A stretch of 37,256 nt of DNA, taken from positions 1 through 37,256 of IMG/VR virus record IMGVR_UViG_3300023223_000105. One strand, written 5' to 3'. The stretch is from a virus. Under the pieces are notes generated by a model. That model did no database searches. It had not been told where the DNA came from and saw nothing but the letters and a program-made list of their open reading frames with translations. This document shows positions 2,165-37,256 of this stretch, piece after piece (within the stretch, counting starts at the first letter, position 1; each line of letters begins with the position of its first letter). A program made the position numbers and the translations under genes.

Positions 2165-2188
2165 TGGGGCATAACCAAGGAGCGGTTA

Positions 2189-2582: not shown

Positions 2583-2586
2583 AATA

Positions 2587-2944: not shown

Positions 2945-3015
2945 ACCCGATGATGAATACATAGCTAATATGGATGAACAACAGAGATATGATAACTGGT
3001 TAATGGAGGATGATA

Positions 3016-3669
3016 ATGACGATACACGAAGTGCTACACACAATACAACAGGAGCTTAAGGCTCCCAAAGATAAATACAGCACCTATGGTGAATACAACT
3101 ACCGCTCCCTTGAGGGTATTGTAGAGGCCGTAAAACCACTACTGCCTGAAGGGGTTACTTTAACTTTCTCAGACAAGCTTGTTGAGATAGCTAGTGTGGT
3201 CTTTGTGGAAGGAATAGGGACTCTTGCAAGTGCCGAGGGCTCAATATCTGTTAGTGGCTTTGCTCGCCACGATAGAGAAAGAAAGAAGATGCAATCTGAG
3301 CAGCTAACGGGGTCAGCCTCTTCTTATGCTCGTAAGTATGCAGCTAACGGTCTGTTCGCCATTGATGACACAAAAGATACTGACACCGACGAAAGCCACA
3401 AAGAGAGGCAAGCGGCGGAAACTGCCATGAAGAAAGAGAATGCAATAAGGGCTGGGGAAATATTTGATGACCACAATAATAAACTTATGGGCTTTGAGTC
3501 TACCGAAGGTGATGAATTTAAGGAGTGGTGGGCTTCCAAGAAGGACGAGCGCCAGGAATTGCATAAATTAGATACACATAAGGCAGTCACTCTTGTGGCA
3601 AATATGAAGATTAAGTGTAAGGAGTTCCTGGAAAAAGCACCATGTGAAGTGCTTATAGGGGGTGAGTGA
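3016..3669 (+). CDS. erf: Erf-family single-strand annealing recombinase.
   Basis: YNYRSLEGIVEAVKPLLPEG ... GSASSYARKYAANGLFAIDD matches the conserved ERF pattern. Track start is 3010. ATG 3016 has better spacing from GGAGG. Confidence 0.8.
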   Translation: MTIHEVLHTIQQELKAPKDKYSTYGEYNYRSLEGIVEAVKPLLPEGVTLTFSDKLVEIASVVFVEGIGTLASAEGSISVSGFARHDRERKKMQSEQLTGSASSYARKYAANGLFAIDDTKDTDTDESHKERQAAETAMKKENAIRAGEIFDDHNNKLMGFESTEGDEFKEWWASKKDERQELHKLDTHKAVTLVANMKIKCKEFLEKAPCEVLIGGE

Positions 3670-3881
3670 TGGAGTGGAAAAAGATAGATGAGGATACCCC
3701 CGAAGATGTGCCATTGATTGTTTACGTGCCTGAGTTTAAAAGGGCTTGCATAGGGACTAATATAACTTATAGAGCAAGGACGGGGTGGGTTCTGCGGCAG
3801 ACTCCAGTAGGACAGGTGCGTAGAGATTATCAGCCAACTCACTGGATGCCACTACCTAAACCACCAATGGATATAACATAA
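3669..3881 (+). CDS. DUF551 domain protein, 70 aa.
   Basis: N-terminal W..I and C-terminal PTHWMPLPKPP are characteristic of DUF551. TGATG overlap with erf. Confidence 0.7.
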   Translation: MEWKKIDEDTPEDVPLIVYVPEFKRACIGTNITYRARTGWVLRQTPVGQVRRDYQPTHWMPLPKPPMDIT

Positions 3882-3970
3882 TGCTTAAATACACAGACTC
3901 CCTAGGCATAGAACGTGGTATATCCGTAACGGCAAGTTAATAATTTTTTAATCTAAATATGGAGTTAATT

Positions 3971-4714
3971 ATGAACGAAAGAACTGCAATTGGGGGCAAC
4001 AATCCTCCGTCTGAAATTGAAATCCTGAAAGAAAGGCTAGGGAGTCATGTCGAAGAGGATAAGTTGATAAATGACCTCGTATCCCGCCCGATTACTACAG
4101 AGGTGAAGGATGATGAAGAGGCTGGAGGGGTTGCTGATTATATTAAGTGCCTGACATCTGCCCGCTCTAATGTGGAAAAGATATTTAAAGCCGAGAAAAA
4201 GCCATTCTTTGAAGCTTGCAAGGTAGCTGACCAGTGGAAAAACACTAGGTGGAAAAAGATAGACGATTGTGTGGTGACCGCTAAAAAGCCTCTTGTTGTC
4301 TGGAATAGAAAGAAGGAGGATGAGGAAAGGGCAAGGCAGTTAGAGTTAGCACGTAAAGCGCAGGAAGAGGCGGAACGTTTGGCGAAGGAGGCAGAAGAGC
4401 ATTCAAGTGCTGGTATTGAGGATACGGCAGAAGATTTAATGGAGGCGGCAATTGAGGAGGAGAAAAAGTCATCCGTCCTAACCGACGGTGCAGATAATGT
4501 GCGCTCAAGGTCAACCGGAGCGTTCTCAACAGCATCAAACAGAAAGGTGTGGGTTGGTGTTGTTAATAGCATGGCTACTTTAGATGCAAACGCACTCAAG
4601 CAATACTTTACCCAGGATAGCATAGATAAGGCGATAAGAGCGGCTATCAAGGATGGTGTGCGTGAGATTCGTGGGGTTAGGATATTCCAAGAGGATAAAA
4701 TCACTATCAGGTAA
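3971..4714 (+). CDS. Hypothetical coiled-coil protein with N-terminal GGNNPP motif, 247 aa.
   Basis: Track ORF 3959..4714. ATG 3971 lies 6 nt after GGAG. The central region is charged and helical (EERARQLELARKAQEEAERLAKEAEE). Confidence 0.7.
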   Translation: MNERTAIGGNNPPSEIEILKERLGSHVEEDKLINDLVSRPITTEVKDDEEAGGVADYIKCLTSARSNVEKIFKAEKKPFFEACKVADQWKNTRWKKIDDCVVTAKKPLVVWNRKKEDEERARQLELARKAQEEAERLAKEAEEHSSAGIEDTAEDLMEAAIEEEKKSSVLTDGADNVRSRSTGAFSTASNRKVWVGVVNSMATLDANALKQYFTQDSIDKAIRAAIKDGVREIRGVRIFQEDKITIR

Positions 4715-4766
4715 AAGCAGAACTTGTAGAAATGATTAACAATATAGAGGAGAAGTAACAGTTTAT

Positions 4767-4842
4767 GGCTCCGTAGTGTAACGGTTAGCACGTCAGGTTT
4801 TCAGTCTGAAGATGCAGGGTTCGATTCCCGCCGGAGCTACCA
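4767..4842 (+). tRNA. tRNA-Glu(UUC)-like, 76 nt with encoded CCA; weak T stem.
   Basis: GGCTCCGTAGTGTAACGGTTAGCACGTCAGGTTTTCAGTCTGAAGATGCAGGGTTCGATTCCCGCCGGAGCTACCA. Acceptor GGCTCCG/CGGAGCT (G1-U72). D stem GTGT/GCAC. Anticodon stem TCAGG/TCTGA with loop TTTTCAG. T loop TTCGATT, but only 3 clean T-stem pairs. Confidence 0.65.
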
Positions 4843-4892
4843 AGATATTAACAGGGGTGGCTTAGGCTGCGTCACCTCGATAGGGAGGGTTT

Positions 4893-5060
4893 ATGGATAG
4901 GATGATTGGACATATGTGGTTGATAGCGTCTATCTTTTATGCGCTATTATCAGGTAGCGGCATACAATATACCGCAGTTAGTGTGCTAATGGCACTCAGC
5001 GGGTGCCTTATCCTGGGAGTGGTGGCTTATGAAGAAACGACCAAACAAAGCAACCCGTGA
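4893..5060 (+). CDS. Small membrane protein, 55 aa (not in the track).
   Basis: The ATG is preceded by GGGAGGG. Translation MDRMIGHMWLIASIFYALLSGSGIQYTAVSVLMALSGCLILGVVAYEETTKQSNP has two hydrophobic segments. It overlaps the next ORF by 32 nt, so it is uncertain. Confidence 0.4.
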   Translation: MDRMIGHMWLIASIFYALLSGSGIQYTAVSVLMALSGCLILGVVAYEETTKQSNP

Positions 5061-5304
5061 ATTAGAGGCGCGCATGAGAGAGTTTGGCTGTATAATATGC
5101 AAGAGACCCGCTGTTATACATCACATTACAGGTGCGGGTATGGGGTTAAAGTCTGAGAAGTTCTTTCCTCTTTGTCCGACCCATCATACAGATGGGGGAT
5201 TCGGTAACGCCGTCCACTCTGGAACGGAAACCTGGGAAGCTATATTTGGTACGCAAGAGGAATTGTTTAATAGGACTATGGAGAGACTAAATGGAAGGCT
5301 TTAA
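5029..5304 (+). CDS. Ref-like RecA-dependent HNH nuclease (recombination enhancement family), 91 aa.
   Basis: The pattern GCIICKRPAVIHHITGAGMGLKSEKFFPLCPTHHTDGGFGNAVHSG matches the C..C/HH/PLC..HH signature I associate with the Ref / RecA-dependent nuclease family. Confidence 0.6.
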   Translation: MKKRPNKATRELEARMREFGCIICKRPAVIHHITGAGMGLKSEKFFPLCPTHHTDGGFGNAVHSGTETWEAIFGTQEELFNRTMERLNGRL

Positions 5305-5542
5305 ATTAGATAAGGGCGTGGCTATATTGCCTTACGGCACCAGTTCAGGGCGGGCATCTAATAAATATCACTTTGACAGGTATGAGCTGGAAGATAGTTG
5401 CTTTTATCCACTTACTTTCGCTGAGAGAGATCAAATAAGCACCAGTGCGTGTTCTTATGGAAGGGGGCACAAGAGGAAGTTTGTTACGCGGGGAACGACA
5501 GAAGGAGGTGTAGAAGGCACAAGAGTATGGCGAATAAGTTAA
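5291..5542 (+). CDS. Hypothetical protein, 83 aa.
   Basis: Track ORF overlapping the upstream gene end. No confident motif. Confidence 0.6.
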   Translation: MEGFKLDKGVAILPYGTSSGRASNKYHFDRYELEDSCFYPLTFAERDQISTSACSYGRGHKRKFVTRGTTEGGVEGTRVWRIS

Positions 5543-5561
5543 CTATGGAGAGGTTAGGATT

Positions 5562-5660
5562 ATGACGGAACAAGAAATGTTTTTCTATGGTCAGATATTT
5601 ATGGCTATGTCAGTTGCTATAGTTATAGGGCTGATGGTTTTTGTTGGTAATGATGATTAA
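5562..5660 (+). CDS. Small hydrophobic peptide, 32 aa (not in the track).
   Basis: GGAGAGG SD. Translation MTEQEMFFYGQIFMAMSVAIVIGLMVFVGNDD. Confidence 0.3.
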   Translation: MTEQEMFFYGQIFMAMSVAIVIGLMVFVGNDD

Positions 5661-5734
5661 TGTGGAGTTGGGATTATGACTAAGTTGTTTTATGAGGCAA
5701 GCAGTTCTTTATGCCTATGTCAGAGGAGTAGAGT

Positions 5735-5857
5735 ATGAAGCTTTTTTACACTCATTACCACTATTGGATTCCATTGGAAAGTCATACAACGGGGCTTATT
5801 AAGCATCAGTGTCAGGAATGTGGAGAAGTAATCCACTTTAAATACAGAAACCCATAG
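5735..5857 (+). CDS. Small Cys/His-containing protein, 40 aa (not in the track).
   Basis: GAGGAG SD 6 nt upstream. Translation MKLFYTHYHYWIPLESHTTGLIKHQCQECGEVIHFKYRNP. Confidence 0.3.
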   Translation: MKLFYTHYHYWIPLESHTTGLIKHQCQECGEVIHFKYRNP

Positions 5858-5883
5858 AGTATAAACTATTAACGCTAAAGGAG

Positions 5884-6261
5884 ATGGTGGTGAGTGAATT
5901 TAAAGCGGGCGATAAGGTCATACGCACAGTTGTTACAAAAACTGAGTATACGGTAGTCAAAGCAACAAAAGAGAATGTTTGGTTAGAGACTTGTTATGGT
6001 GGAATACCAATCTCGGAAACAGAACATAAGGGACAAAAAACGACCGACAATTACCAATGTGATGCCATGTATTACGAAAAGTGCTTGAGGGATTTGAGGG
6101 ATGTTTTTACCCAAACACTGGTATATGTCAAGAAAGTTGGCGACCAACAAATGATTGCTGTCTGTAACATAAAGATCACCGAGATCACGGAAATACTGGA
6201 ACACAAATACGAACTTGACGGCGTAGATTTAGATAAACCTAACTATGGGATGTTTGAGTGA
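5884..6261 (+). CDS. Hypothetical protein, 125 aa.
   Basis: Track ORF with AAAGGAG immediately upstream. The exact start is uncertain (ATG 5884 or GTG 5887/5890). Confidence 0.7.
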   Translation: MVVSEFKAGDKVIRTVVTKTEYTVVKATKENVWLETCYGGIPISETEHKGQKTTDNYQCDAMYYEKCLRDLRDVFTQTLVYVKKVGDQQMIAVCNIKITEITEILEHKYELDGVDLDKPNYGMFE

Positions 6262-6626
6262 TGAAGGAAACAGCCAAGCAACGCTCAATACGCCAGAACA
6301 ACTACCGCTGGGGTGTTGTGGTTAAAACTGTTATGGACGCTATGAATCTGGAGCTTAAAGCAAGGGGTTGTGAATATCGCCTCAAGTCCGAAGATGTAGA
6401 CCTGTTTATCAAAGACCACGCACTTGGTATAGTACATAGGATAAAAACCTCGATCGGTGAGTTCATTATAGTGGGGAAATTAAAGACCAGATCTCCAGGT
6501 GACTTTGAAGAAGCTATGGAGCAGATTAGGGCGCATTTTGCACAACTTGAAACCAACCCTATATATATTGCCTTACCGAATGAACCTACTTACGATGATT
6601 TAAAGGATAACCTAGATAGGGAGTAA
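6261..6626 (+). CDS. NinB/Orf-like recombination mediator (tentative), 121 aa.
   Basis: N-terminal RSIRQNNYRWGVV resembles the RS.DQN..LW motif of lambda NinB. It lies in a recombination gene context and has a TGATG overlap with the upstream gene. Confidence 0.5.
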   Translation: MKETAKQRSIRQNNYRWGVVVKTVMDAMNLELKARGCEYRLKSEDVDLFIKDHALGIVHRIKTSIGEFIIVGKLKTRSPGDFEEAMEQIRAHFAQLETNPIYIALPNEPTYDDLKDNLDRE

Positions 6627-6798
6627 TCACATGGCGCGCACATGAGAAGGCTATAATGACCACCCCCTTCAACGCAAATCAGGGAAGATGAGCACATGAA
6701 ACGCTACTGCATGTATTTTCTAGCAATCTTGGCTATCGGCCTAATGGTGCTGATTACAGGAGCTTCTATATATGGAATGAACGTTTATATCTTGGGGG

Positions 6799-28248: not shown

Positions 28249-28407
28249 TCATTTCTCAATACACGTGGCTCTTATAAAGGACATTTTGTCTACCACAGAT
28301 TCAGCCTTCTTGCAGGATTCCATATCCTTAAACTCAACCGTTTGCATCTGTATGCCGACAGTCGACTTCATTAGTATTATAATCATAAATGCTGCTTTTG
28401 CAATCAT
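28249..28407 (-). CDS. Small secreted/membrane-anchored protein, 52 aa.
   Basis: Track ORF 28249..28506. ATG 28407 lies after AAGGAATAACAAT. The N-terminus MIAKAAFMIIILMKSTVG is signal-like. Confidence 0.5.
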   Translation of the reverse strand: MIAKAAFMIIILMKSTVGIQMQTVEFKDMESCKKAESVVDKMSFIRATCIEK

Positions 28408-28495
28408 ATTGTTATTCCTTGTTAAATTGGTGGCTACCCGGTTCATATTAAGAGCGTGACAAAAAATACAACAGGGTAGCCATAGGGTTAGTTCT

Positions 28496-28924
28496 TTATT
28501 TGACACCAGGGAAGCGTACCTTGCTAAGTATGCCGCTAAAAAGGCAAAAGAACTTATAAACTAATTTACGCGGGTAATACATAAGTAAACGCCTTCCTCC
28601 CCTCGTGCGGTTGCTATACTCCTGGCTGCGACAAGTGATTTTCACCTCTTTCCTATAGTCCCAATCCTCATAAAGTTCTCTTTCTCGCCAACCCCGAAGT
28701 TCGTTGAGCAGTTTATTCCTAAACAATAACCGCCCACCCTTAGCATGATTAACCCACGTAGGAGATAAATTGAAGTGACCAGTATGCACATCTCTATACC
28801 CCCACTCCTTATATGCAGCCCAGTGACCGCCTCCTACTTGCTCCTTTAACTCAGCCTGATAGTCCTCTTTAGTCCTCCACCGCTTCCCCCTCAACTCATC
28901 CCGCCATATTATATTGCCCATCAT
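28496..28924 (-). CDS. Hypothetical Trp/Arg-rich protein, 142 aa.
   Basis: Track ORF; its start overlaps the upstream stop (ATGATGG). Confidence 0.65.
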   Translation of the reverse strand: MMGNIIWRDELRGKRWRTKEDYQAELKEQVGGGHWAAYKEWGYRDVHTGHFNLSPTWVNHAKGGRLLFRNKLLNELRGWRERELYEDWDYRKEVKITCRSQEYSNRTRGGRRLLMYYPRKLVYKFFCLFSGILSKVRFPGVK

Positions 28925-29097
28925 CTACTCCATAGGGAGTAGTTCTTTGGTTCAAGTTTATCTAGTTCGTCTTTCCTGATCCATATATAGGGATTATCTT
29001 TCTGTCCTCTCTCCCACCACATACTAATCACACCGACAAGGGCGGTGACAGTTATCGCCCCTGTAAAGAGCCCTTCTATAAATCCTAATTCCATCAT
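28921..29097 (-). CDS. Small membrane protein, 58 aa (not in the track).
   Basis: My translation is MMELGFIEGLFTGAITVTALVGVISMWWERGQKDNPYIWIRKDELDKLEPKNYSLWSR. It starts directly after the upstream TAG and ends in a TGATG overlap with the next gene. Confidence 0.5.
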   Translation of the reverse strand: MMELGFIEGLFTGAITVTALVGVISMWWERGQKDNPYIWIRKDELDKLEPKNYSLWSR

Positions 29098-29334
29098 CTA
29101 TTCCTCAAATGGCACGTGTTTAGGTCTTTTAATTATATGCATCTGGTTTACAAAAGTAATCTTCCTGTTAGCCTCGGAGGGCTCCGTCTTGGGGGTGGGA
29201 GGTCTTACAACTTCTTTCCTGTAGTAGTCTCTAATTTCCTTCAGCTCCTCCAATGCGTCATCCATGGCAGCGGGGAATAAGTTTAGTTCCAGCAGTATAC
29301 GACACGCTTCGTAGTACTTTTTGTTATCTGGCAT
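29098..29334 (-). CDS. Hypothetical protein, 78 aa.
   Basis: Track ORF in the packed early array. Confidence 0.6.
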   Translation of the reverse strand: MPDNKKYYEACRILLELNLFPAAMDDALEELKEIRDYYRKEVVRPPTPKTEPSEANRKITFVNQMHIIKRPKHVPFEE

Positions 29335-29641
29335 CGTACCCCTTTATAATCTTAATTGCTGCTTGTGCCGCTATCTTAGCAAGCCTCGGCTCTTCCCCAA
29401 GCTCAAAGGAAATTTCTTCGGCTACTTCTGACAGCAACTCCTGACTCTCCAGCCTTTCCGTATACTCTTTCTGGGCGGCAGTGTAACCATAATGATACCT
29501 GTCCTTGGCTTTGTCCTTTGGTGTTTCGGTATACTCTTTGAGGTCTTTTAGGGCTTTCTTTGCCCATTTTGGGTTCATATCGTCAAATAGGCCACCCCTA
29601 GCGTAATACTCCAAAGCTTCCTGTACTCTCTGTAGACTCAT
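29324..29641 (-). CDS. Hypothetical helical protein, 105 aa.
   Basis: Track ORF; ATGA overlap with the upstream gene. Confidence 0.6.
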   Translation of the reverse strand: MSLQRVQEALEYYARGGLFDDMNPKWAKKALKDLKEYTETPKDKAKDRYHYGYTAAQKEYTERLESQELLSEVAEEISFELGEEPRLAKIAAQAAIKIIKGYDAR

Positions 29642-29883
29642 GGCTTCCTCCGTAGTTCTTCAATGGCGTAATTAAGCATTTCTGTGTACACCTCACCATC
29701 TTCTCTGTCTTTTGATCCCTCCAGATAATCCGCTATCTGTTCCCTGCTGGGTCTTAGGGAGGCTTTTAGGGCTTTGTATTGGCGCATCTCCCTTAGATTT
29801 ACCTTGCAACCCTGGTCATAATATGCCTCACGTTCTAATAGCTCTATCAACGCCTCGGCTTTCTCTCGTATATCTTTAGTCAT
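29638..29883 (-). CDS. Hypothetical helical protein, 81 aa.
   Basis: Track ORF 29638..29931. ATG 29883 (MTKDIREK..) lies after AAGGAAAAGCC. Confidence 0.6.
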   Translation of the reverse strand: MTKDIREKAEALIELLEREAYYDQGCKVNLREMRQYKALKASLRPSREQIADYLEGSKDREDGEVYTEMLNYAIEELRRKP

Positions 29884-29903
29884 GGCTTTTCCTTTAGTTA
29901 ACG

Positions 29904-30248
29904 TTAACCTTGCCTCGGTCTCGATCCCCAAGGTCGTCTTTTGGGTGGTAGGTCTGGCAATTTGTCGCTATCTGCAAAAAATTCTGCATTTACAGGCAAC
30001 AACCCCCGCAGCCTCTTGATTTCTTCCTGAGCTTCTTTAAGTTCCTTAACTGCGTTGGAGTTGGTGAGGGCTGCTTTTAAAGCGGGGCGTAAATACTGTT
30101 TTATGAACTCAAACGGTGGACAATACTCAAGCTCTTCTTTTACTGTTCCGTCTGTGTAGGCTGTGCACTTTTTTTCGGTGATAGCTGGCATATGTTCTAA
30201 CGCCGCCATCATCACCTTCTCCACATCCTTATCAATGTCGTATGTCAT
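29904..30248 (-). CDS. Hypothetical protein, 114 aa.
   Basis: Track ORF 29904..30314. ATG 30248 (MTYDIDKD..) lies after AGAGGGG. Confidence 0.55.
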   Translation of the reverse strand: MTYDIDKDVEKVMMAALEHMPAITEKKCTAYTDGTVKEELEYCPPFEFIKQYLRPALKAALTNSNAVKELKEAQEEIKRLRGLLPVNAEFFADSDKLPDLPPKRRPWGSRPRQG

Positions 30249-30353
30249 GCTGCAACCCCTCTTATCAGATTGTAAATTATCACAACACCCCAAAGTATCA
30301 TCAGTAAGGCACACCCCCGGATATTTTCCTCCTGCCGCCTCTTTAGATGCTTC

Positions 30354-30482
30354 TCAGTTTCGGGTGTCACGCCTTCCCTCTTTCCTACGCATTTCCAGTA
30401 TCTTGGCTATCCTCCTGCTACAGAGATACCCCCCAATGATACAAAGAATTGTATAACAAATTATAAACGATGCTACGGTCAT
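30354..30482 (-). CDS. Small membrane protein, 42 aa (not in the track).
   Basis: My translation is MTVASFIICYTILCIIGGYLCSRRIAKILEMRRKEGRRDTRN. ATGA overlap with the upstream gene. Confidence 0.45.
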   Translation of the reverse strand: MTVASFIICYTILCIIGGYLCSRRIAKILEMRRKEGRRDTRN

Positions 30483-30649
30483 GATTCCTCCGGGTAATTC
30501 ATTTCAGTAAGCTCTTGAAGCTTCTTTAAGTCAGTGGCCTTGCGTATGTTGTTTACTAGGCTTTGAAGGTCGTACTCAACGCCCGCATAATCCCAACCCA
30601 GATTATCTAATTCATTCTGTAACGCTGCAATACCCTCTTTATCGGTCAT
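30479..30649 (-). CDS. Hypothetical acidic protein, 56 aa.
   Basis: Track ORF 30479..30673. ATG 30649 lies after GGAGGAGG and overlaps the upstream stop (ATGA). Confidence 0.6.
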   Translation of the reverse strand: MTDKEGIAALQNELDNLGWDYAGVEYDLQSLVNNIRKATDLKKLQELTEMNYPEES

Positions 30650-30990
30650 GATTTCCTCCTCCTGGCATCCCACTCCTTAACCTGCGCCTTGTTGACCATC
30701 TTAGCGCATCGAACGTGGTACTTGCGGTTGTAGTGAGGGTTTACCATCAGGTCAAAACAACCCTCCCGTTGGCAAGCCCTATATGTTGCTCGCGGTACCT
30801 CAAACTTAACCTCTGGGGCTTCTATTTCGTCTATTGGTAGGGGCTGTGATTTACGCTCCGGCTGATGCTCTGGATATAAATTTGTAAGTATAACCGTCGG
30901 CAACGCCTTCTTCAGTTTGTCGTGATAGGTTGGTTTTGGCTTGTCGTGTTTCCAGAAGTTCGCTAGGCGATTGAGTAGTTTACTGAACAT
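30646..30990 (-). CDS. Hypothetical basic protein with a Cys/His cluster, 114 aa.
   Basis: CQREGC...HYNRKYHVRC suggests metal binding. Its start lies inside junction repeat J3. Confidence 0.6.
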   Translation of the reverse strand: MFSKLLNRLANFWKHDKPKPTYHDKLKKALPTVILTNLYPEHQPERKSQPLPIDEIEAPEVKFEVPRATYRACQREGCFDLMVNPHYNRKYHVRCAKMVNKAQVKEWDARRRKS

Positions 30991-31258
30991 GGTCTTTCTC
31001 CTCTTTGAGATTTATAGTGTCATCGCAATACTTACATACCTTTGCTGGGCGGTATTTATCATAGTGCGTCCAACTACTTCCAAATTCACCCCAACGCGTA
31101 ACGCCTTCTCCCACACCTACATTCTTTAATTCATATTCGTGCTTGCCTTTCTGGCAGTTCAACTGCGATTGTAATTTATCACACCTATAGGCTAAATTCT
31201 TATTTGTGACAGACAAATAAACCTCCAAGTCTTTTAGTCTTTTATTCCACCCGAACAT
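30980..31258 (-). CDS. Hypothetical Cys-containing protein, 92 aa.
   Basis: Track ORF 30980..31369. ATG 31258 (MFGWNK..) lies inside the J3 repeat after GAGGAGAAAG. Cysteine pattern C-x9-C ... CKYC. Confidence 0.55.
   Translation of the reverse strand: MFGWNKRLKDLEVYLSVTNKNLAYRCDKLQSQLNCQKGKHEYELKNVGVGEGVTRWGEFGSSWTHYDKYRPAKVCKYCDDTINLKEEKDHVQ
30985..31004 (-). repeat. Junction repeat J3, copy a (gaacatggtctttctcctct).
   Basis: 19/20 identical to 31253-31272. On the coding strand it reads AGAGGAGAAAGNCCATGTTC, which is the upstream gene tail plus SD plus start codon. Confidence 0.85.
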
Positions 31259-31556
31259 GGCCTTTCTCCTCTGTTTGTAGGGCTTGTTCAGATAATTTAT
31301 CCACTTTATTCCAATCTGGACATTCCTCAATTTGGGGGTCAGCGTTACGACATACCTCTCTAAACGCAACTTCGCTCTCCAACGCCTCCCGTAGCTTCTC
31401 CTCTTGCTTGGTGGTGGCTTCTGCTCTCACCTTCTCGGCAGCTTCAAGGGCGGCTCTGCCAAATCTTTCGGCACTATATGAACATGAGTCTTCAGCTCTA
31501 AATGTGCATTTCATTACAGCTAAACGAGCAGCTTTTATTTCCTTCTCTGTTGGCAT
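31242..31556 (-). CDS. Hypothetical protein, 104 aa.
   Basis: Track ORF. Its C-terminal EEKGHV tail is encoded inside J3 copy b. Confidence 0.6.
   Translation of the reverse strand: MPTEKEIKAARLAVMKCTFRAEDSCSYSAERFGRAALEAAEKVRAEATTKQEEKLREALESEVAFREVCRNADPQIEECPDWNKVDKLSEQALQTEEKGHVRVE
31253..31272 (-). repeat. Junction repeat J3, copy b (gaacatggcctttctcctct).
   Basis: 19/20 identical to 30985-31004. Confidence 0.85.
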
Positions 31557-31558
31557 AA

Positions 31559-31885
31559 TCAGGACTCCTTCTTGGGTGGGGTGGGTAGGGGTTGCCAGCG
31601 AGTTGCATCGACCTTTGTATTAGAGGTGCGCTTCCAGCATGGTTTTCTTATCCATATATCCCAAAGCCCGTGGTACGACTCTTTGTAAATATCACTCCAA
31701 AGAATCATTATAGTCCCATCCTTCGGTGCCGTCTCAATCGGTTGCCACTCCCTCTCTTTCACCAGGGCGGATAGCTCTGCTATTAGCTGCTTATGCTCAC
31801 TGCTGATAACTTGCAAATCCTTATGTCCGTGCTCTTTTTCCACTTCGTCAGCCGCCTTGAGTAGTTTTTCTGTGGTTCTGGGCAT
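31559..31885 (-). CDS. DUF551-like protein, 108 aa (second copy in the genome).
   Basis: REWQPIETAPKDGT ... ATRWQPLPTPP matches the DUF551 signature. ATG 31885 lies 7 nt after GGAGAG in junction repeat J2. Confidence 0.65.
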   Translation of the reverse strand: MPRTTEKLLKAADEVEKEHGHKDLQVISSEHKQLIAELSALVKEREWQPIETAPKDGTIMILWSDIYKESYHGLWDIWIRKPCWKRTSNTKVDATRWQPLPTPPKKES

Positions 31886-31915
31886 CAATCACTCTCCTTT
31901 TTGCAGTTGGTTGAT
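31886..31915 (-). repeat. Junction repeat J2, copy a (caatcactctcctttttgcagttggttgat).
   Basis: 29/30 identical to 32779-32808. The coding strand reads ATCAACCAACTGCAAAAAGGAGAGTGATTG, i.e. INQLQKGE-stop plus SD. Confidence 0.9.
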
Positions 31916-32779
31916 GTATCCCTTAAATTCCTGTATCCACTCATAAGATAACTTACTGAATTGGTTGTTCTCTGGCGTATCTCCTGCCGAAATTCCGAGG
32001 AAAAACCTTTCAATCGGACGTGAACCATCCCTCATATCACATTTCCCCTCAAATCTTTTAGATTTTTCAATCGTCCCACATAAACACGCACACTCACCTT
32101 CGTAAGTTGTTCCCTCAATCTTACCCCCAAGGATGGCTTTCTCAAGTAACGGTATCTCTGGGATAGCACGGAGTAGAACATCAAACATATCCCTCTTTAT
32201 CGGATCAAGGTTTGCGCCACGGAGGTTTGCGCCACGGAAGTTTGCGCCACGGAGGTTTACGTCACCGAGGTTTACGCCACCGAGGTCTGCGTCACGGAGG
32301 TTTACGTAACTGAGGTTTGCGTAACTGAGGTCTGCGTAACTGAGGTCTGCGCCACGGAGGTTTACGCCACCGAGGTCTGCGTCACGGAGGTTTGCGTAAC
32401 TGAGGTTTGCGTAACTGAGGTCTGCGTAACTGAGGTCTGCGCCACGGAGGTTTACGCCACCGAGGTCTGCGTCACGGAGGTTTGCGTAACTGAGGTTTAC
32501 GTAACTGAGGTTTGCGCCACCGAGGTCTGCGTCACCGAGGTTTACGCCACGGAGGTTTGCGTAACTGAGGTTTACGTAACTGAGGTTTGCGCCACCGAGG
32601 TCTGCGTCACCGAGGTTTACGCCACGGAGGTTTGCGTAACTGAGGTCTGCGCCACCACTAACCGCTTTCTTTATCGCTTCTCCTTTTTTCAAGGCATCAC
32701 TTTTAACTTCAAAACTTGCATCAATATCACAGGTGAACACGACCTTACCGGAAAACCTATCGTTAATCTCAAACTTCAC
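31889..32779 (-). CDS. Pentapeptide-repeat protein, 296 aa (N-terminal ~42 aa, ~30 pentapeptides, ~105-aa Cys-containing C-terminal domain).
   Basis: GADLSYANLRGVNLGDADLGGANLSYVNLSYANLRG... is a canonical A(D/N)LxX repeat. The GTG at 32779 occupies the position of the ATG in the paralogous J2 junction (track start 32785). Confidence 0.85.
   Translation of the reverse strand: MKFEINDRFSGKVVFTCDIDASFEVKSDALKKGEAIKKAVSGGADLSYANLRGVNLGDADLGGANLSYVNLSYANLRGVNLGDADLGGANLSYVNLSYANLRDADLGGVNLRGADLSYADLSYANLSYANLRDADLGGVNLRGADLSYADLSYANLSYVNLRDADLGGVNLGDVNLRGANFRGANLRGANLDPIKRDMFDVLLRAIPEIPLLEKAILGGKIEGTTYEGECACLCGTIEKSKRFEGKCDMRDGSRPIERFFLGISAGDTPENNQFSKLSYEWIQEFKGYINQLQKGE
32207..32656 (-). repeat. 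Tandem 15-bp periodic coding repeat organised in 75- and 90-bp higher-order units.
   Basis: 32281-32370 vs 32371-32460 are 89/90 identical. 32511-32570 vs 32586-32645 are 60/60 identical. Confidence 0.9.
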
Positions 32780-32808
32780 AATCACTCTCCTTTTTGTAGT
32801 TGGTTGAT
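32779..32808 (-). repeat. Junction repeat J2, copy b (caatcactctcctttttgtagttggttgat).
   Basis: 29/30 identical to 31886-31915. A degenerate third copy (aagttggttgat, 32966-32977) lies in the next spacer. Confidence 0.9.
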
Positions 32809-32949
32809 AAATTCAGCAACCGCTTTAGCCTTCTCGATTGAAAGCTTTGTTACATTTCTATCAATCTCTTCCCCCTTGCTATCAAGAAAGATGCCAGTAA
32901 TCCTAACTATCTCATCATCACCTACTGAACACTCGTATTTTATTTTCAT
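32782..32949 (-). CDS. Small protein, 55 aa (not in the track), ending in the same FINQLQKGE tail as the pentapeptide protein.
   Basis: My translation is MKIKYECSVGDDEIVRITGIFLDSKGEEIDRNVTKLSIEKAKAVAEFINQLQKGE. AAGGAAAAGCC lies upstream of the ATG. Confidence 0.5.
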   Translation of the reverse strand: MKIKYECSVGDDEIVRITGIFLDSKGEEIDRNVTKLSIEKAKAVAEFINQLQKGE

Positions 32950-33000
32950 GGCTTTTCCTTACTAAGTTGGTTGATATATGCTTTTACCTTGGTAATCCAG

Positions 33001-33168
33001 TCAGGCCTTAGCCATTACCCGTAATGCCATTAATACACTTTCGGGTATCGGGTGTTCACCTTTAGACCACCTTCCAACCGTCCTGCGGTTGACCTTGAAG
33101 GTTCTGGCTAGCTTTGATTGCCAGCCGTCACCAAATACTTCTTGCCCTAGTTGGTTAAATTCTTTCAT
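33001..33168 (-). CDS. Small HTH DNA-binding protein, 55 aa.
   Basis: GWQSKLARTFKVNRRTVGRWSKGEHPIP is HTH-like. ATG 33168 lies 2 nt after the upstream stop (track start 33186). Confidence 0.6.
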   Translation of the reverse strand: MKEFNQLGQEVFGDGWQSKLARTFKVNRRTVGRWSKGEHPIPESVLMALRVMAKA

Positions 33169-33170
33169 TA

Positions 33171-33428
33171 TTATGTTACAGCCCATAATTGAGTTTTCTT
33201 ACCCGTCACTTCCTCGTATTGATTGCGCCAATCAATAGCGTCAGCAACACACTCGCCTTTATTGTCATATAAATGATTAGGAACGTCACCAGACGGGGAT
33301 CCAGGTAAAAGAGAGGCAATGTAACCACCATGAAAATCATTATAAGTTACATGAATCACCGCTTCAAAACCGTTGCGCTCAGCGGCGTTAAGTACATCAA
33401 CTGCGGTGTGTTTATTTTCTTTAGACAT
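33171..33428 (-). CDS. Hypothetical acidic protein, 85 aa.
   Basis: Track ORF with AAAGGAG SD. About 12 acidic vs 7 basic residues. Confidence 0.65.
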   Translation of the reverse strand: MSKENKHTAVDVLNAAERNGFEAVIHVTYNDFHGGYIASLLPGSPSGDVPNHLYDNKGECVADAIDWRNQYEEVTGKKTQLWAVT

Positions 33429-33463
33429 AATCGAACTCCTTTCCGATACTTTGCAGCAAATGC

Positions 33464-33607
33464 CTAGTGCCTTTGCCTGATACCTTTATATACTGGGTGG
33501 GACATTGTGTCAAGGGCTTCTTTCACTTTTCTGCAAATAAACCTCATACCCACATAAGCCCATATAAGCAGCGTACAGGTGAAGAGGATTACTGGTAGGG
33601 CGTGCAT
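33464..33607 (-). CDS. Small membrane protein, 47 aa.
   Basis: Track ORF 33464..33667. ATG 33607 (MHALPVILFTCTLLIWAYVG..) lies in junction repeat J1 after AAAGGAG. Confidence 0.55.
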   Translation of the reverse strand: MHALPVILFTCTLLIWAYVGMRFICRKVKEALDTMSHPVYKGIRQRH

Positions 33608-33622
33608 CGTAATTACTCCTTT
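33605..33622 (-). repeat. Junction repeat J1, copy a (catcgtaattactccttt).
   Basis: 18/18 identical to the start of copies b and c. The coding strand reads AAAGGAGTAATTACGATG, with the upstream stop TAA inside the SD-start spacer. Weaker similarity extends about 30 nt further. Confidence 0.85.
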
Positions 33623-33831
33623 CGTTTCTCTAAGGTGGGTTTCTGCTCGATTACGGATGTAGTCCACCCTATTTTTAAAACCTGTGCATAAGGCTGGTTA
33701 TTTTCCGCATAATCTATCGCCTCTTGCTTGTCTACGAAAACAGGCATCACCCCATACAGTCCATCGGTTGATAAATCGACCATCCCCGCGTTTGTTGTCA
33801 ATCTCGTCCACATCCGTGTTACTAAGTACAT
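33613..33831 (-). CDS. Hypothetical protein, 72 aa.
   Basis: Track ORF. Its start lies in J1 copy b and its stop in J1 copy a. Confidence 0.6.
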   Translation of the reverse strand: MYLVTRMWTRLTTNAGMVDLSTDGLYGVMPVFVDKQEAIDYAENNQPYAQVLKIGWTTSVIEQKPTLEKRKE

Positions 33832-33994
33832 CGTAATTACTCCTTTGGTTGCTTAGGGGGCTTTCTGTTCGATTAAACCTAGGCTCAAGCGCGAATGGAC
33901 TCTCCTCAAGCTCACGAATCCGCTCCTTATGCCACGCTATTAACTCATTTCTTTCCTGGGTATCTAGTTCGTCTTTATCTGCGGTCCACTTCAT
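33698..33994 (-). CDS. Hypothetical protein, 98 aa as read. The last ~44 codons overlap the next gene out of frame, so the stop may have been lost.
   Basis: Track ORF. It starts in J1 copy c and reads through J1 copy b in a frame that misses the TAA used by the paralogous junctions. Confidence 0.45.
   Translation of the reverse strand: MKWTADKDELDTQERNELIAWHKERIRELEESPFALEPRFNRTESPLSNQRSNYDVLSNTDVDEIDNKRGDGRFINRWTVWGDACFRRQARGDRLCGK
33829..33861 (-). repeat. Junction repeat J1, copy b (catcgtaattactcctttggttgcttagggggc).
   Basis: 33/33 identical to 33992-34024. Confidence 0.9.
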
Positions 33995-34024
33995 CGTAAT
34001 TACTCCTTTGGTTGCTTAGGGGGC
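33992..34024 (-). repeat. Junction repeat J1, copy c.
   Basis: 33/33 identical to 33829-33861. Confidence 0.9.
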
Positions 34025-34161
34025 GTCCCTGTGGGTTTGGTGGTGGGTTTCTCCTCCTCCTCGACAGTCGCATCAATGAAAGTTACGCCCTGCGATTCAA
34101 AGAACTTCATAAACGCATTGGTTCTTGCGTCTAATTTTGATTTATCAATTGGTTTAGGCAT
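34000..34161 (-). CDS. Small protein, 53 aa (not in the track).
   Basis: My translation is MPKPIDKSKLDARTNAFMKFFESQGVTFIDATVEEEEKPTTKPTGTPPKQPKE. AGGAGAACGACC lies upstream, and the stop is the TAA inside J1 copy c. Confidence 0.5.
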   Translation of the reverse strand: MPKPIDKSKLDARTNAFMKFFESQGVTFIDATVEEEEKPTTKPTGTPPKQPKE

Positions 34162-34180
34162 GGTCGTTCTCCTGGTTACA

Positions 34181-34202
34181 GTCTCAAGTCGTAAGTTATC
34201 GC
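34181..34202 (-). repeat. Intergenic repeat J4, copy a (gtctcaagtcgtaagttatcgc).
   Basis: 22/22 identical to 34408-34429. It lies 20 nt upstream of a start codon, and the flanks are also similar. Confidence 0.9.
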
Positions 34203-34205
34203 CGC

Positions 34206-34388
34206 TCAGCCTCCCGCCTTCGAATCCTCCATTGCTTCCTTTAAAATATCCAGTTTGGCTATTTCTAGCACCCCCACTATTCCCGACACTGGCAAGCCCT
34301 CCCCTCTGTCGTATAGTAAATCTTTTATAGCATCCACTAGGGTTTCAAAACGTTGGTCACATTCATGTAATTGAGCTACTTTATTCAT
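34206..34388 (-). CDS. Hypothetical protein, 60 aa.
   Basis: Track ORF with AAGGAGACGATT upstream of the ATG. Confidence 0.6.
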   Translation of the reverse strand: MNKVAQLHECDQRFETLVDAIKDLLYDRGEGLPVSGIVGVLEIAKLDILKEAMEDSKAGG

Positions 34389-34407
34389 AATCGTCTCCTT
34401 GGGTTAG

Positions 34408-34429
34408 GTCTCAAGTCGTAAGTTATCGC
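34408..34429 (-). repeat. Intergenic repeat J4, copy b.
   Basis: 22/22 identical to 34181-34202. It lies 19 nt upstream of the start codon at 34388. Confidence 0.9.
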
Positions 34430-34442
34430 TATGCACGTCATG

Positions 34443-34646
34443 CTAATTAATCCAGCCTCGTGCGTTTCGTTTTCGGTATTTATCCCAATGTGGGAGTTTA
34501 GCCTTTTTGGAATCTTTCTTGTCAACGAAAGGGGATTCAATAAGCCACGGCTTGTGCCAAGTCGCACGGCATGGGTACGCATATGTGTCCAAACAAGTGC
34601 AGTCCCATTCCTCAGTCCCAGTACCGGTGCCTTTAATTAGAGTCAT
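34443..34646 (-). CDS. Hypothetical Trp/Cys-containing protein, 67 aa.
   Basis: Track ORF. The competing ORF 34385..34582 looks like a shadow. Confidence 0.6.
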   Translation of the reverse strand: MTLIKGTGTGTEEWDCTCLDTYAYPCRATWHKPWLIESPFVDKKDSKKAKLPHWDKYRKRNARGWIN

Positions 34647-34664
34647 TATTAATCAATCCAGTAT
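34646..34664 (-). repeat. Junction repeat J5, copy a (ttattaatcaatccagtat).
   Basis: 19/19 identical to 34986-35004. Here it is noncoding and sits directly upstream of the ATG at 34646. Confidence 0.9.
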
Positions 34665-34710
34665 CTTTTCAAGTTGTAGTGAGGGGCTATGCACGTAGTG
34701 ATATTGTTAC

Positions 34711-34965
34711 TCAAGGCGTTTGTTCCGCTTCTTCTGGCGTTTCCGCCGCTGTATCTTCTTCATCAGGGCTATTTGCCAGTAGTAAATCCCATCCATCACT
34801 GTAAGCTTTGTCTATCACTTCCTGATTTTCGGCGTTTATCTTTTGGTACTCATCCTCCCCACCTTCGATTGCATCAGCGTTAAAATCTCCCGTATACTTC
34901 TGGTTAGCTAAACATGCCAGCAAGTGTTCCAAGAAATTCTCTTCAATTGTTATTGTTTTGGTCAT
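34711..34965 (-). CDS. Hypothetical acidic protein, 84 aa.
   Basis: Track ORF with ACGGAGAATTATT upstream of the ATG. Confidence 0.65.
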   Translation of the reverse strand: MTKTITIEENFLEHLLACLANQKYTGDFNADAIEGGEDEYQKINAENQEVIDKAYSDGWDLLLANSPDEEDTAAETPEEAEQTP

Positions 34966-34985
34966 AATAATTCTCCGTTTAGTTG

Positions 34986-35004
34986 TTATTAATCAATCCA
35001 GTAT
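34986..35004 (-). repeat. Junction repeat J5, copy b.
   Basis: 19/19 identical to 34646-34664. Here it encodes the C-terminal YWID-stop of the upstream gene. Confidence 0.9.
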
Positions 35005-35543
35005 TTGGCGTTATCCCCATCAGCCTGCCTTATTGCATCCTCAATTAGCAGCCGTTCATCCGGTGAGGTTGTGGTCTTGGCAGCAACAAAGTCTTCCACG
35101 TATTGATCCTCTGCCCTGGTAGTAAATACATTCTCACGTTTCTTGCGCTTGATTTCCAGAAACGTTACTTTGCACCACTCTATCGGTTCAACTGGTGGCT
35201 CTATGATTTTCACAATATCCGCTGGCTTTGGCATCACTGTCTTGGTTTCCATGTAAGTCCTGAATGCAGACTCAACGTCCTCAATCGTGAACCTGCCAAG
35301 CACTAGCTGAAAAGCCCCCTCCAGATTCTTTAGCTGCTCCGGCTCCTTCCCGTATGTATCCAGCGTGTCAAAGCATATTAGCAGGAGTGACATCAATCGG
35401 GACTTGTGGCTCTCGTTCTGGTTTATCGAGTCCGAGTGCGATTCTGGCTCTTTGGTGTTTGCTGAGTTTTCCTCCTCCTTGGGTTTTCGGTTGGCATCGA
35501 TCCCAGTCAAAAGCGTTTTTGTATGCTGCGATAAAGTTTTCAT
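34989..35543 (-). CDS. Possible replisome-organiser / helicase-loader-like protein; start unresolved (GTG 35579, ATG 35543 or ATG 35393).
   Basis: Track ORF 34989..35579. The C-terminal two thirds look globular (RFTIEDVESAFRTYMETKTVMPKPADIVKII). The N-terminal ~60 codons are low-complexity and overlap the DUF1376 gene. Confidence 0.55.
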   Translation of the reverse strand: MKTLSQHTKTLLTGIDANRKPKEEENSANTKEPESHSDSINQNESHKSRLMSLLLICFDTLDTYGKEPEQLKNLEGAFQLVLGRFTIEDVESAFRTYMETKTVMPKPADIVKIIEPPVEPIEWCKVTFLEIKRKKRENVFTTRAEDQYVEDFVAAKTTTSPDERLLIEDAIRQADGDNAKYWID

Positions 35544-36204
35544 ATCTTGGCTTTCCTCCTTCTTTGGTTTTAGATTCACAATAGTTCTTAAAAGTTTCTA
35601 TTATGGCCTGCTCGTCATGGTGGAGATACTTTCCCTCAATACGTTTTTTGGCCAACCACTCCTGGACGTGATTTACTGACAACTCTTCTAAGGTAACTTG
35701 CTTCTTTTTTACCAAAGGTTTTTTTCTTTTAGGAGTAGGAGTAGGAGTAGGAGTAGGGGAGGCATCGCCCCGGCTATGCCCGGCGGATGCCGTTGCATGA
35801 GCTGAATCCTTAGTTTTCAACCACCTAGCCTTTGCTTTACGACTCTGGTTTTGTGATAGTAACTTCACTGCCGTGAGTTCGTCTTTTAATCTTAGCTGCA
35901 CCCATGTGGAATCCTGAACCAAAAAGAACGGCTCAATAATCGGTCGCATTCTCTTCCAGTGATTCAATCTAAGCTTGCTATATCTGGCCAGCATAATGTC
36001 ATCATCAGGCAAGGCTCCGTCCTTGGATCGCCACGCAACTATTAGCAAAAGCAGATACGCACCATGCTCTATAGTGGTAAGGTGTGTGGTGTCGCCTAAA
36101 TAAGCGTCAGTCCACAAGGGAAAAGCTGGAAATTGTGCCACGACTACCTCAACGTCAAAGGTTACGTCTTTTGTACAAGCGGGGGGAGACGTTGATCCCC
36201 CCAT
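35368..36204 (-). CDS. DUF1376 (YdaU-like) replication-associated protein with a (PT)n linker and C-terminal domain, 278 aa.
   Basis: FPLWTDAYLGDTTHLTTIEHGAYLLLLIVAWRSKDGALPDDDIMLARYSKL..W is the DUF1376 signature. The start is uncertain (ATG 36204 has no SD; GTG 36141 follows GAGG). Confidence 0.75.
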   Translation of the reverse strand: MGGSTSPPACTKDVTFDVEVVVAQFPAFPLWTDAYLGDTTHLTTIEHGAYLLLLIVAWRSKDGALPDDDIMLARYSKLRLNHWKRMRPIIEPFFLVQDSTWVQLRLKDELTAVKLLSQNQSRKAKARWLKTKDSAHATASAGHSRGDASPTPTPTPTPKRKKPLVKKKQVTLEELSVNHVQEWLAKKRIEGKYLHHDEQAIIETFKNYCESKTKEGGKPRYENFIAAYKNAFDWDRCQPKTQGGGKLSKHQRARIALGLDKPEREPQVPIDVTPANML

Positions 36205-36993: not shown

Positions 36994-37256
36994 CTAGTAA
37001 GGCCAGTGGAATATACGATCCCATAGGGACATGGATTCTATTTTATCAAGACGCTCTGCTTGGAGGTTGTTAACGAGTTGCATCGATTCCATCAACGTGA
37101 TTAGATAGTCTAATGCCTCGCCGTCAAGACGAGGGGCTTCCTTTTGTGGAAACTGCACTTTGTTATTCTGGTATTTCTTACGCTTCTGTGTAAGAATACT
37201 CTCTTTGTTAGCTTGGTAATACTCACGCTGCCGTGCAAGAGCCCTCTCTCTATTTT
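36994..37256 (-). CDS. 3' portion of the 117-aa basic repeat protein (see 1..235). 37113-37256 duplicates 1-144.
   Basis: The frame continues ...RLDGEALDYLITLMESMQLVNNLQAERLDKIESMSLWDRIFHWPY to a stop (TAG, complement of cta at 36994-36996). Confidence 0.6.
   Translation of the reverse strand, partial: NRERALARQREYYQANKESILTQKRKKYQNNKVQFPQKEAPRLDGEALDYLITLMESMQLVNNLQAERLDKIESMSLWDRIFHWPY
37113..37256. repeat. Terminal direct repeat, copy 2 (identical to 1-144).
   Basis: Direct reading. Confidence 0.95.

Follow-up and report, generated by a model that had tools for sequence, protein, structure and literature searches.

The window analysed here is the whole 37,256-nucleotide (nt) stretch of the IMG/VR virus record IMGVR_UViG_3300023223_000105, and our subject is an array of small early genes within it, in which single genes are bracketed by short direct repeats located at the gene junctions. 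With positions 1-144 identical to positions 37113-37256 (144 nt), the window represents a complete phage genome of 37,112 bp, circular or terminally redundant. A run of minus-strand genes extends from approximately 36640 down to 6800, in the order helix-turn-helix regulator (g1), DUF1376 replication protein (g2; 36204-35368), g3, the array genes g4-g27, the terminase small subunit gene terS, the terminase large subunit gene terL (27883-26558), and the structural and lysis genes. The array spans 34965-28249 and contains 24 small open reading frames (ORFs) of 42-296 amino acids (aa), all on the minus strand. The only Pfam match above the curated cut-off is that of g14 (pentapeptide repeats, PF00805), and PHROG matches are restricted to g12, g14 and g27; an initial annotation of this DNA, made from the sequence alone, had likewise counted about 24 ORFs, almost none with a recognisable function. 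Codon-usage log-odds support the annotated frame in most of the array ORFs, with a weak signal in g5, g10, g18 and g20. The plus strand carries an operon (2100-6630) with the genes of an ERF-family single-strand annealing recombinase (3010-3669; PF04404, E = 1.4e-31) and a Ref/DUF968-type HNH nuclease (5029-5304), proteins that together with a DUF1064 protein (382-819, minus strand) constitute a recombination toolkit. No integrase was seen among the scanned ORFs of at least 100 aa.

The repeats have a common layout, which on the coding strand consists of the last codons of the upstream gene, a stop codon, a Shine-Dalgarno sequence (SD) and the next start codon. All of the array copies are on the minus strand. 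The J1 sequence, CCCCCTAAGCAACCAAAGGAGTAATTACGATG, encodes the tail ..PPKQPKE-stop and is present in three copies. J1c (33992-34024) contains the end of g7 (..PPKQPKE-stop), the SD AAGGAG and the ATG of g8, and the 33829/33992 pair is exact over 33 nt, J1c being identical over this length to J1b (33826-33875), which is located upstream of g9 and inside the g8 ORF, where it is read in another frame. The third copy, at 33605 (J1a, 33602-33653), contains the end of g9 (..VIEQKPTLEKRKE-stop), an SD and the ATG of g10; 18 nt of it match the other copies exactly, and it is approximately 85% identical to J1b over 50 nt, with two indels. J2, ATCAACCAACTRCAAAAAGGAGAGTGATTG, encodes ..INQLQKGE-stop, and its copies at 31886 and 32779 match over 30 nt with one mismatch (29/30; 18 nt exact). 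J2a (31886-31915) is formed by the end of the pentapeptide gene g14 (..INQLQKGE-stop), an SD and the g15 start, and J2b (32779-32808) by the end of g13 (again ..INQLQKGE-stop), an SD and the GTG start of g14; a partial third copy, J2c (32949-33003, core 32965-32979), is non-coding and lies just upstream of g13. In J3, AGAGGAGAAAGRCCATGTTC, the downstream start codon is embedded in the upstream tail EEK(D/G)HV, and the 30985/31253 pair matches over 20 nt with one mismatch (19/20). J3a (30985-31004) has the g17 tail (EEKDHV), an embedded SD and the first two codons of g18 (ATG TTC), and J3b (31253-31272) has the g16 tail (EEKGHV), an embedded SD and the first two codons of g17 (ATG TTC).

The remaining array repeats lie close together between g3 and g7. 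J4 is a spacer element, GCGATAACTTACGACTTGAGAC, followed by an SD, and its copies at 34181 and 34408 share 22 nt exactly, or 76% identity over 50 nt. J4a (34153-34202) is in the g6/g7 spacer (GCGATAACTTACGACTTGAGAC, SD, ATG), and J4b is in the g5/g6 spacer (34380-34445), which also holds one copy of an additional pair, D12, and reads ACGTGCATAGC, then GCGATAACTTACGACTTGAGAC, SD and ATG. D12, which consists of ACGTGCATAGC and its flanks at 34428/34686, brackets g5; D12 and J4 together form an element of about 40 nt that occurs in three consecutive spacers (g4/g5, g5/g6 and g6/g7) in differing states of decay. The g4/g5 spacer (34641-34710) is a composite, with a D12 copy at 34686-34703, a diverged J4-like piece (TACAACTTGA) and J5a (34641-34664). 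J5, ATACTGGATTGATTAATAA, encodes ..YWID-stop, with 19 nt exact between 34646 and 34986; J5b (34981-35004) is the end of g3 (..KYWID-stop), upstream of g4.

Two further pairs of the same design, J6 and J7, are found in other early operons, outside 28249-34965. J6a (1364-1388) and J6b (1658-1682), on the minus strand, flank a 96-aa gene (1370-1660) and are 84% identical over 25 nt, 14 nt of this exact. J7a (2558-2571) and J7b (2718-2731), on the plus strand, share the 14-mer GGAGAAAGCCGATG and bracket a 55-aa gene (2569-2736), with the tails ..GEKAD and ..MEKAD, respectively, each containing an embedded start. The genome thus contains at least eight repeat pairs, five of them within 1.4 kb, with exact identities of 14-33 nt and up to about 50 nt when diverged flanks are included; no fewer than seven unrelated families can be distinguished, each made up of two or three neighbouring copies. 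The five families J1-J5 of the initial annotation are all present at the positions it gave, and each copy falls on a tail/stop/SD/start junction as it had described. It had also taken the five to be unrelated, and their sequences are indeed distinct; J4 and J5 are not fully independent, however, being connected by the composite g4/g5 spacer and the D12/J4 element.

The significance of the repeats was evaluated after exclusion of two kinds of internal repeat, the 15-nt periodicity inside the pentapeptide gene and the hexanucleotide (TP)n run in g2. The five longest exact direct repeats in the genome are 33, 22, 19, 18 and 18 nt in length, and all are located within 31886-35004. Across 200 shuffled versions of the genome, the longest exact repeat had a mean length of 14.7 nt and was at most 18 nt, in line with the initial view that the matches are beyond chance. 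No short-range repeats of at least 16 nt are present in the 11-kb structural stretch downstream of terL, and the structural module of roughly 20 kb is free of exact repeats of at least 18 nt. When the 48 nt at each start codon were compared for the 29 genes from g1 to terL, exact matches of at least 11 nt were found for seven of the 28 adjacent junction pairs and for three of the 378 non-adjacent pairs, two of the latter being next-nearest neighbours within the J1 and J2 families, and gene-order permutation failed to reproduce this adjacency pattern in any of 20,000 trials (p < 5e-5). The initial annotation had named as the case against its reading that the repeats might be ordinary ribosome-binding site (RBS) or promoter motifs present at most genes, and this is not so, the similarity being confined to neighbours. 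The identity in J1, J2 and J3 stops at the start codon or no more than 3 nt from it, giving these repeats a sharp 3′ edge.

Eight of the 24 array genes are bracketed, all on the minus strand. These are g4 (34711-34965; 84 aa, an ORFan) by J5, g5 (34443-34646; 67 aa, with a tail, ..NARGWIN-stop, like that of g3) by the D12 pair, g6 (34206-34388; 60 aa) by J4, g8 (33698-33994; 98 aa, beginning MKWTAD) by J1c and J1b, g9 (33613-33831; 72 aa) by J1b and J1a, g13 (32782-32949; 55 aa) by J2c and J2b, the pentapeptide-repeat gene g14 (31889-32779; 296 aa) by J2b and J2a, and g17 (30980-31258; 92 aa) by J3. The initial statement that each pair brackets exactly one gene therefore holds with the exception of g8, which has just its first 44 codons in the interval from J1c to J1b, the remainder reading through J1b and overlapping g9 out of frame by 134 nt. 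The extension of g8 looks like a read-through following a recent junction event. Codon statistics in the g8/g9 overlap are ambiguous, and the gene caller of the source record kept g8 and dropped g9; homologues of g9 are 57-65 aa in length and 44-55% identical to it.

The bracketed genes are not tandem paralogues, and as judged from sequence comparisons their bodies are unrelated. In an all-versus-all BLASTP of the array the sole matching pair is g13/g14 (E = 3e-4), a match carried by the identical 9-residue tail, and in Smith-Waterman comparisons with tails trimmed no neighbouring pair rises above shuffled controls (z <= 1.1). The conservation is thus at the nucleotide rather than the protein level, as was initially proposed. 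We considered whether g13 might be a degenerate paralogue of the pentapeptide gene, which is suggestive by eye; however, z falls to 0.02 without the shared 9-residue tail, and g13 receives -1.2 bits from a hidden Markov model of the g14 family, constructed with 18 relatives, and is thus not detected by it. The two genes have only the tail, and possibly the J2c relic described below, in common. Those 18 relatives, which are proteins of 96-184 aa from metagenomes and metagenome-assembled genomes, share with g14 an N-terminal motif (MKFEINDRFSG) and a Cys-rich C-terminal domain (GECACLCGT..RPIERFF..DTPENNQFSKL); the 15-nt periodicity of g14 is at 32103-32741. Pentapeptide proteins can mimic DNA, and g14 is for this reason a candidate host-takeover or anti-defence gene.

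Several of the repeat copies carry internal traces of recombination. First, J1b is a hybrid, with its 3′ 33 nt identical to J1c and its 5′ part (TAATCGAACAGAAA; TAATCGAACAGAAAG) matching J1a. Secondly, gene ends survive as non-coding relics in two of the copies: J5a, which lies in the 64-nt spacer following g4, reads ..RYWID-stop and echoes the g3 tail ..KYWID-stop, and J2c (DWITKVKAYINQL..) is the relic of a g14-type gene end and echoes the g14 tail EWIQEFKGYINQL. Together with J1b, which lies in another frame within g8, these bear out the initial remark that some copies are read in different frames or are relics. Thirdly, the g4/g5 spacer is assembled from pieces of the g5/g6 and g3/g4 junctions. 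These hybrid, relic and composite copies provide support from within the genome for the initial proposal of recombination at the junctions.

The tails encoded by the repeats can also be compared with the family cores of the genes that carry them. Homologues of g9 align to its residues 1-55, the family core, and then continue into unrelated short tails, such that the repeat-encoded tail lies outside the core; the possibility that the tail upstream of g9 is native to the g9 family was rejected, as the homologues end before it. Relatives of g14 end at ..EFxxYI(N/K)(Q/N), and J2, beginning with the codons of these last three residues, extends five codons further. We note that the tail of one g9 homologue in another genome (P0275; ..EINKQLKEGE-stop) resembles the J2 tail of the window (..YINQLQKGE-stop), a likeness that may reflect just the SD-encoding codons (AAGGAG giving K-E or G-E) or may be the trace of a shared junction type. 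Homologues of g6 are present in two related loci, L227 (56% identity) and L235 (55%), and because its neighbours are unrelated in all three genomes, the unit of mosaicism is the single gene. The notion that g6 is always flanked by repeats did not hold, as it is flanked in the window and in L227, and not in L235.

We think it probable that the repeats are scars of out-of-register recombination at gene junctions, between related phages or between a phage and a prophage. Copies of approximately 20-50 bp, one at the 3′ end of the upstream gene and one at, or just beyond, that of the inserted gene, with unrelated sequence between them, mark such scars, and these are found at J1-J5, D12, J6 and J7. 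The unit that moves would be the core of one small early gene, and the 20-50 nt or so joining two genes (the last codons of the upstream gene with the SD, the stop codon and the next start) would stay with the downstream block. If two genomes had a junction J and its downstream block in common, with different genes upstream, then a crossover one gene out of register, either at SD/ATG microhomology or within J, would generate the arrangement U-J-X-J-V, in which one gene has been gained and J is duplicated on both sides of it. A subsequent exchange involving the two copies of J could delete X cleanly or transfer it, a step that the ERF annealing protein may catalyse and in which a circular intermediate is possible. 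Repeated rounds would give rise to stacks of gene-tail relics and hybrid junctions, and the families would differ since each would derive from a different local junction.

Such an out-of-register step would explain the bracketing of one gene at a time, the 3′ edge at the start codon, the local and distinct families, the hybrids and the tail relics, and the added gene would inherit its tail either in frame, as in g14 and g17, or out of frame, as in g8. Because each J holds a tail, a stop, an SD and a start, an exchange between two copies would delete or transfer one gene and leave its neighbours translatable. We read the repeats as by-products that can then serve as substrates, and not as a dedicated cassette system. 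In lytic growth, Erf-type Rad52-like recombinases act efficiently on homologies that are short and diverged (De Paepe et al. 2014, PMC3945230), and the ERF protein is a plausible catalyst; its involvement, the out-of-register crossover itself and a present-day instability of the array are all inferred.

The relationship of the window to other phages is distant. A megablast against 50,697 phage records gave no match, the best terL identities are 54% in IMG/VR, 46% in GTDB genomes and 47% in JGI metagenomes, and exact look-ups of the window proteins in a contig index led nowhere. Closer terL relatives, with 82-87% identity, were found in a large protein database (L227-L231), and the nearest replication protein is 77% identical in amino acid sequence (L232-L234); two other loci, L236 and L237, are one phage. 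The structural genes of the terL relatives share 70-87% nucleotide identity with the window, and the similarity stops in terS. The arrays of the terL relatives and of L232-L234 have no DNA in common with that of the window. The terL relatives match it in only 3-4 array proteins, and the sole similarities at the protein level are to g1, g6 and parts of g15, g16, g22 and g23. The array is extremely plastic, as the initial annotation had supposed in calling it hyperplastic. Ten array proteins were looked up; the collection contains seven of them, of which six are without cluster-mates at 90% identity.

The closest complete relative, L227, is a 37-kb contig from another sample, and contains three analogous pairs of 18-23 nt that differ in sequence from those of the window. 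The pair at 632/808 (AAGGAGGATTAATTATGG), with tails ..KED-stop, is around one gene; that at 4165/4432 (AAMAGGAGATAAAGAAAATGA) is around the g6 homologue and a 36-aa ORF, its second copy being a decapitated start; and the third, 6894-6916/7217-7239, is a 23-nt spacer element around one gene. This last element contains a small hairpin (GGCTC-ACACAA-GAGCC) in a true spacer and might be regulatory or terminator-like, unlike the junctions of the window. Among 186 non-redundant loci with more distant terL relatives, 96 have arrays of at least 5 kb. Where more pairs are present, the spacing of the repeats, the sole criterion used, mostly suggests tandem paralogues or repeated elements of larger size. 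The pattern is unusual in its density; it may be typical of this small clade, and it is not universal.

Many anti-defence genes are found in the early regions of phages. Precomputed Pfam assignments identify an Acb2/Tad1-hairpin gene (L227 1360-1569), a NUMOD4/HNH homing-type endonuclease gene (L227 2465-3061) and a Tad2-like gene (L232 272-529) in the arrays of the relatives. Because of the Acb2/Tad1-hairpin and Tad2-like genes, known anti-defence genes do sit in such arrays, in agreement with the initial suggestion that they accumulate there.

A number of observations weigh against the scar interpretation. The recombination events are inferred rather than observed; parental phages with a common J are required and none is present in the databases searched, and no genome in the searched collections is close enough to provide a presence/absence allele with a single copy of J. 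Instability is to be expected of direct repeats next to an active annealing recombinase, and for them to persist either a recent origin or selection is needed. The g6 gene of L235 lacks flanking repeats, and 77 of the 96 surveyed arrays contain no short-range repeat of at least 16 nt, compared to six such pairs in the window; the process is thus not general, and we rejected the idea that the pattern is a common property of arrays upstream of this terminase type. The sequence is also that of a metagenome assembly.

A second interpretation, which we regard as doubtful, is that the repeats are linkers, boundary sequences maintained across a phage group such that any gene can be swapped by homologous recombination; this is the modular model of Susskind-Botstein and Clark, and essentially the reading of the initial annotation. 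The repeats lie exactly on gene boundaries and would give seamless joints, L227 has junction repeats of the same type, and, as expected of a linker, the g9 homologues have variable tails that encode an SD. However, no J motif was found in 237 related loci (3.0 Mb) with mismatches allowed, all of the available relatives being distant, and scans of IMG/VR gave no match to J1, J2 or J4 and only two chance matches, both to J5. Moreover, each family is confined to two or three neighbouring junctions of one genome, and the L227 repeats differ in sequence. The conserved junction sequences of the initial annotation, understood as linkers between phages, are not supported by these searches among distant relatives. 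Short homologies at gene or module boundaries have been proposed as sites of homologous exchange in lambdoid phages (refs 21, 22 in PMC3029335), and in this the two situations are alike; the lambdoid linkers, however, are defined by their conservation between phages, whereas here the similarity is seen only between neighbouring boundaries in one genome.

It is unlikely that the repeats are simply expression signals, kept or gene-converted as translation-initiation or coupling regions or as regulator sites, with no bearing on gene flux. Every repeat contains an SD together with a start or stop codon, the J4/D12 element is upstream of the SD in true spacers, three in a row, and weak sigma-70-like matches overlap J4b, J5a and J5b. 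Against this, identities of 19-33 nt with sharp edges far exceed the needs of an RBS, some copies are non-coding relics or are in another frame, and most other junctions, which also have good SDs, have nothing in common. Promoter-like sites are not enriched (18, versus 14.2 +/- 3.8 in shuffles), nor are terminator-like sites (11, versus 8.9 +/- 3.3), and folding of the junctions relative to shuffled sequences (z from -0.56 to +1.63) reveals no significant RNA structure. A scan of Rfam gave no match at any junction, the sole match being a tRNA elsewhere in the genome, and no local inverted repeats are present at the repeats. Enrichment, folding and Rfam tests thus give no support to promoters, terminators, structured RNA or Rfam families as explanations of the repeats. 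Most of the junctions have no spacer at all, and it is mainly where genes overlap or abut that the repeats are found; the J4/D12 element, which lies in spacers, could still be an expression signal.

A bolder proposal, and one that we consider quite unlikely, is that the repeats are working parts of a homology-addressed exchange, in which ERF continually excises early genes one at a time, as small circles formed through exchange of the J copies on either side, and re-inserts them at matching junctions in co-infecting relatives. If true, this would amount to an integrase-free, integron-like shuffling of anti-defence and host-takeover ORFans, in which the tail-SD-ATG design would keep all of the genes translatable.

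There is very little chance that the repeats are an artefact of assembly, a chimeric consensus of strain variants in which alternative genes were strung together at short common sequences. The window is a metagenome contig, its 144-nt terminal overlap is typical of de Bruijn graph assembly, and g8 is an odd, frame-disrupted ORF. However, at 18-33 nt the repeats fall well below the 144-nt overlap, whose length points to a much larger k-mer, and they should give no ambiguity in the graph; alternative alleles, moreover, appear as bubbles anchored differently on the left and on the right, which cannot be joined one after another. In addition, frames and RBSs are intact across nearly all of the joints, and the independent assembly L227, from another sample, has the same kind of repeats.

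A dedicated mobile-cassette machinery, whether site-specific or transposition-like (integron attC sites, PeSL-type cassettes or long target-site duplications), is scarcely credible, for although each unit is a single gene between direct repeats and the families vary by site as target-site duplications would, there is no integrase or transposase among the ORFs scanned, there are neither local inverted repeats nor stem-loops, the inserts have no common end motif, several pairs are diverged with indels or are hybrid, repeat lengths vary from 14 to 50 nt, and the in-frame reuse of tails in J2 and J3 is improbable for a target-site duplication.

The scar interpretation has close precedents among the mycobacteriophages. 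In Island3, gene 68 is an inserted ORFan whose C-terminal 18 residues (approximately 50 bp) repeat the C-terminus of the upstream gp67, and in LRRHood an additional 1.35 kb of DNA, in the region of genes 43-46, lies between 29-bp direct repeats, one at the extreme 3′ end of a gene and the other ahead of the next gene; recombination at the short repeats was the explanation given for both (Pope et al. 2011, PMC3029335). J1, J2 and J3 share this architecture of gene-3′-end repeats flanking inserted DNA. The mycobacteriophage cases differ in being single events, each recognised by means of a close relative with one copy of the repeat, whereas here there are at least eight pairs in 37 kb together with hybrid and relic copies, and no relative that confirms the indels. 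The phenomenon is therefore not new in kind, single cases having been published (PMC3029335); what the window contains is an unusually dense set of probable recombination scars, with no new mechanism.

Other known systems are similar in part. The PeSL cassettes of T4-type phages (Arbiol et al. 2010, PMC2839356; Comeau et al. 2014, PMC4122927) also place repeats at ORFan boundaries in hyperplastic early regions, extending from the stop codon to the SD and start, and adjacent copies recombine with deletion, insertion or circularisation of single genes. PeSLs differ in being one genome-wide family with a strong sigma-70 promoter and a terminator stem-loop, whereas here there are several unrelated local families, with neither a promoter nor a stem-loop per repeat and no single family extending over many junctions. 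Integrons are similarly arrays of single promoterless genes with a repeat at each boundary, but the window has no attC imperfect palindromes, no site consensus and no integrase among the ORFs scanned. The repeats also do not resemble the target-site duplications of transposons or miniature inverted-repeat transposable elements, having no inverted repeats, lengths of 14-50 nt, and copies that are diverged, hybrid or altered by indels. Finally, the Rad52-like phage recombinases (Red-beta, Erf and Sak), which perform relaxed homologous recombination (De Paepe et al. 2014, PMC3945230; Martinsohn et al. 2008, PMC2327257), supply an enzymology, and the phage of the window encodes ERF; the exchanges described in those studies differ in being in-register replacements of homologous segments and not out-of-register events that leave repeats, and the same studies remark that repeats are usually absent from phage genomes (PMC3945230; PMC2327257).

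How small ORFans of early regions are acquired and lost is debated, with random illegitimate recombination followed by selection on one side and homology-guided exchange by recombinases on the other. The junctions of the window offer a natural set of substrates for testing homology-guided against illegitimate gene acquisition in early regions. Each pair is placed such that recombination from copy to copy would remove one gene seamlessly, which predicts deletion alleles and circles that can be sought in the source population. Neighbouring junctions with at least 16 nt in common also provide a search image for recently gained genes in phages.

Several additional features of these genomes can be noted. 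In g2, a hexanucleotide microsatellite at 35730-35757, which as read on the plus strand is (TAGGAG)n, gives the DUF1376 replication protein an internal (TP)n linker. The g3 gene has two candidate starts, at 35543 and 35393 (window 35368-35543); similarity to relatives begins at the ATG at 35543, a start that would overlap the end of g2 by approximately 175 nt in another frame. One terL relative (P0005, 757 aa) is a 72% identical terminase with the intein-type domains PF14890 and PF13403, apparently an intein-containing terL of this clade. A tRNA-Glu(TTC) is predicted at 4767-4842 (plus strand), with an Rfam match of 55.8 bits as well, and a possible tRNA-Leu(TAA) at 259-345 (minus strand) is an ARAGORN prediction only. 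Within the array, g15 (31559-31885, minus strand; 108 aa) belongs to a 90%-identity cluster whose eight other proteins, from different contigs, are only 62-67 aa in length. It appears, from its cluster membership, to consist of a conserved small domain (motif WQPIETAPKDG) and an extra N-terminal part of about 45 aa, and is possibly another fusion made at a junction.

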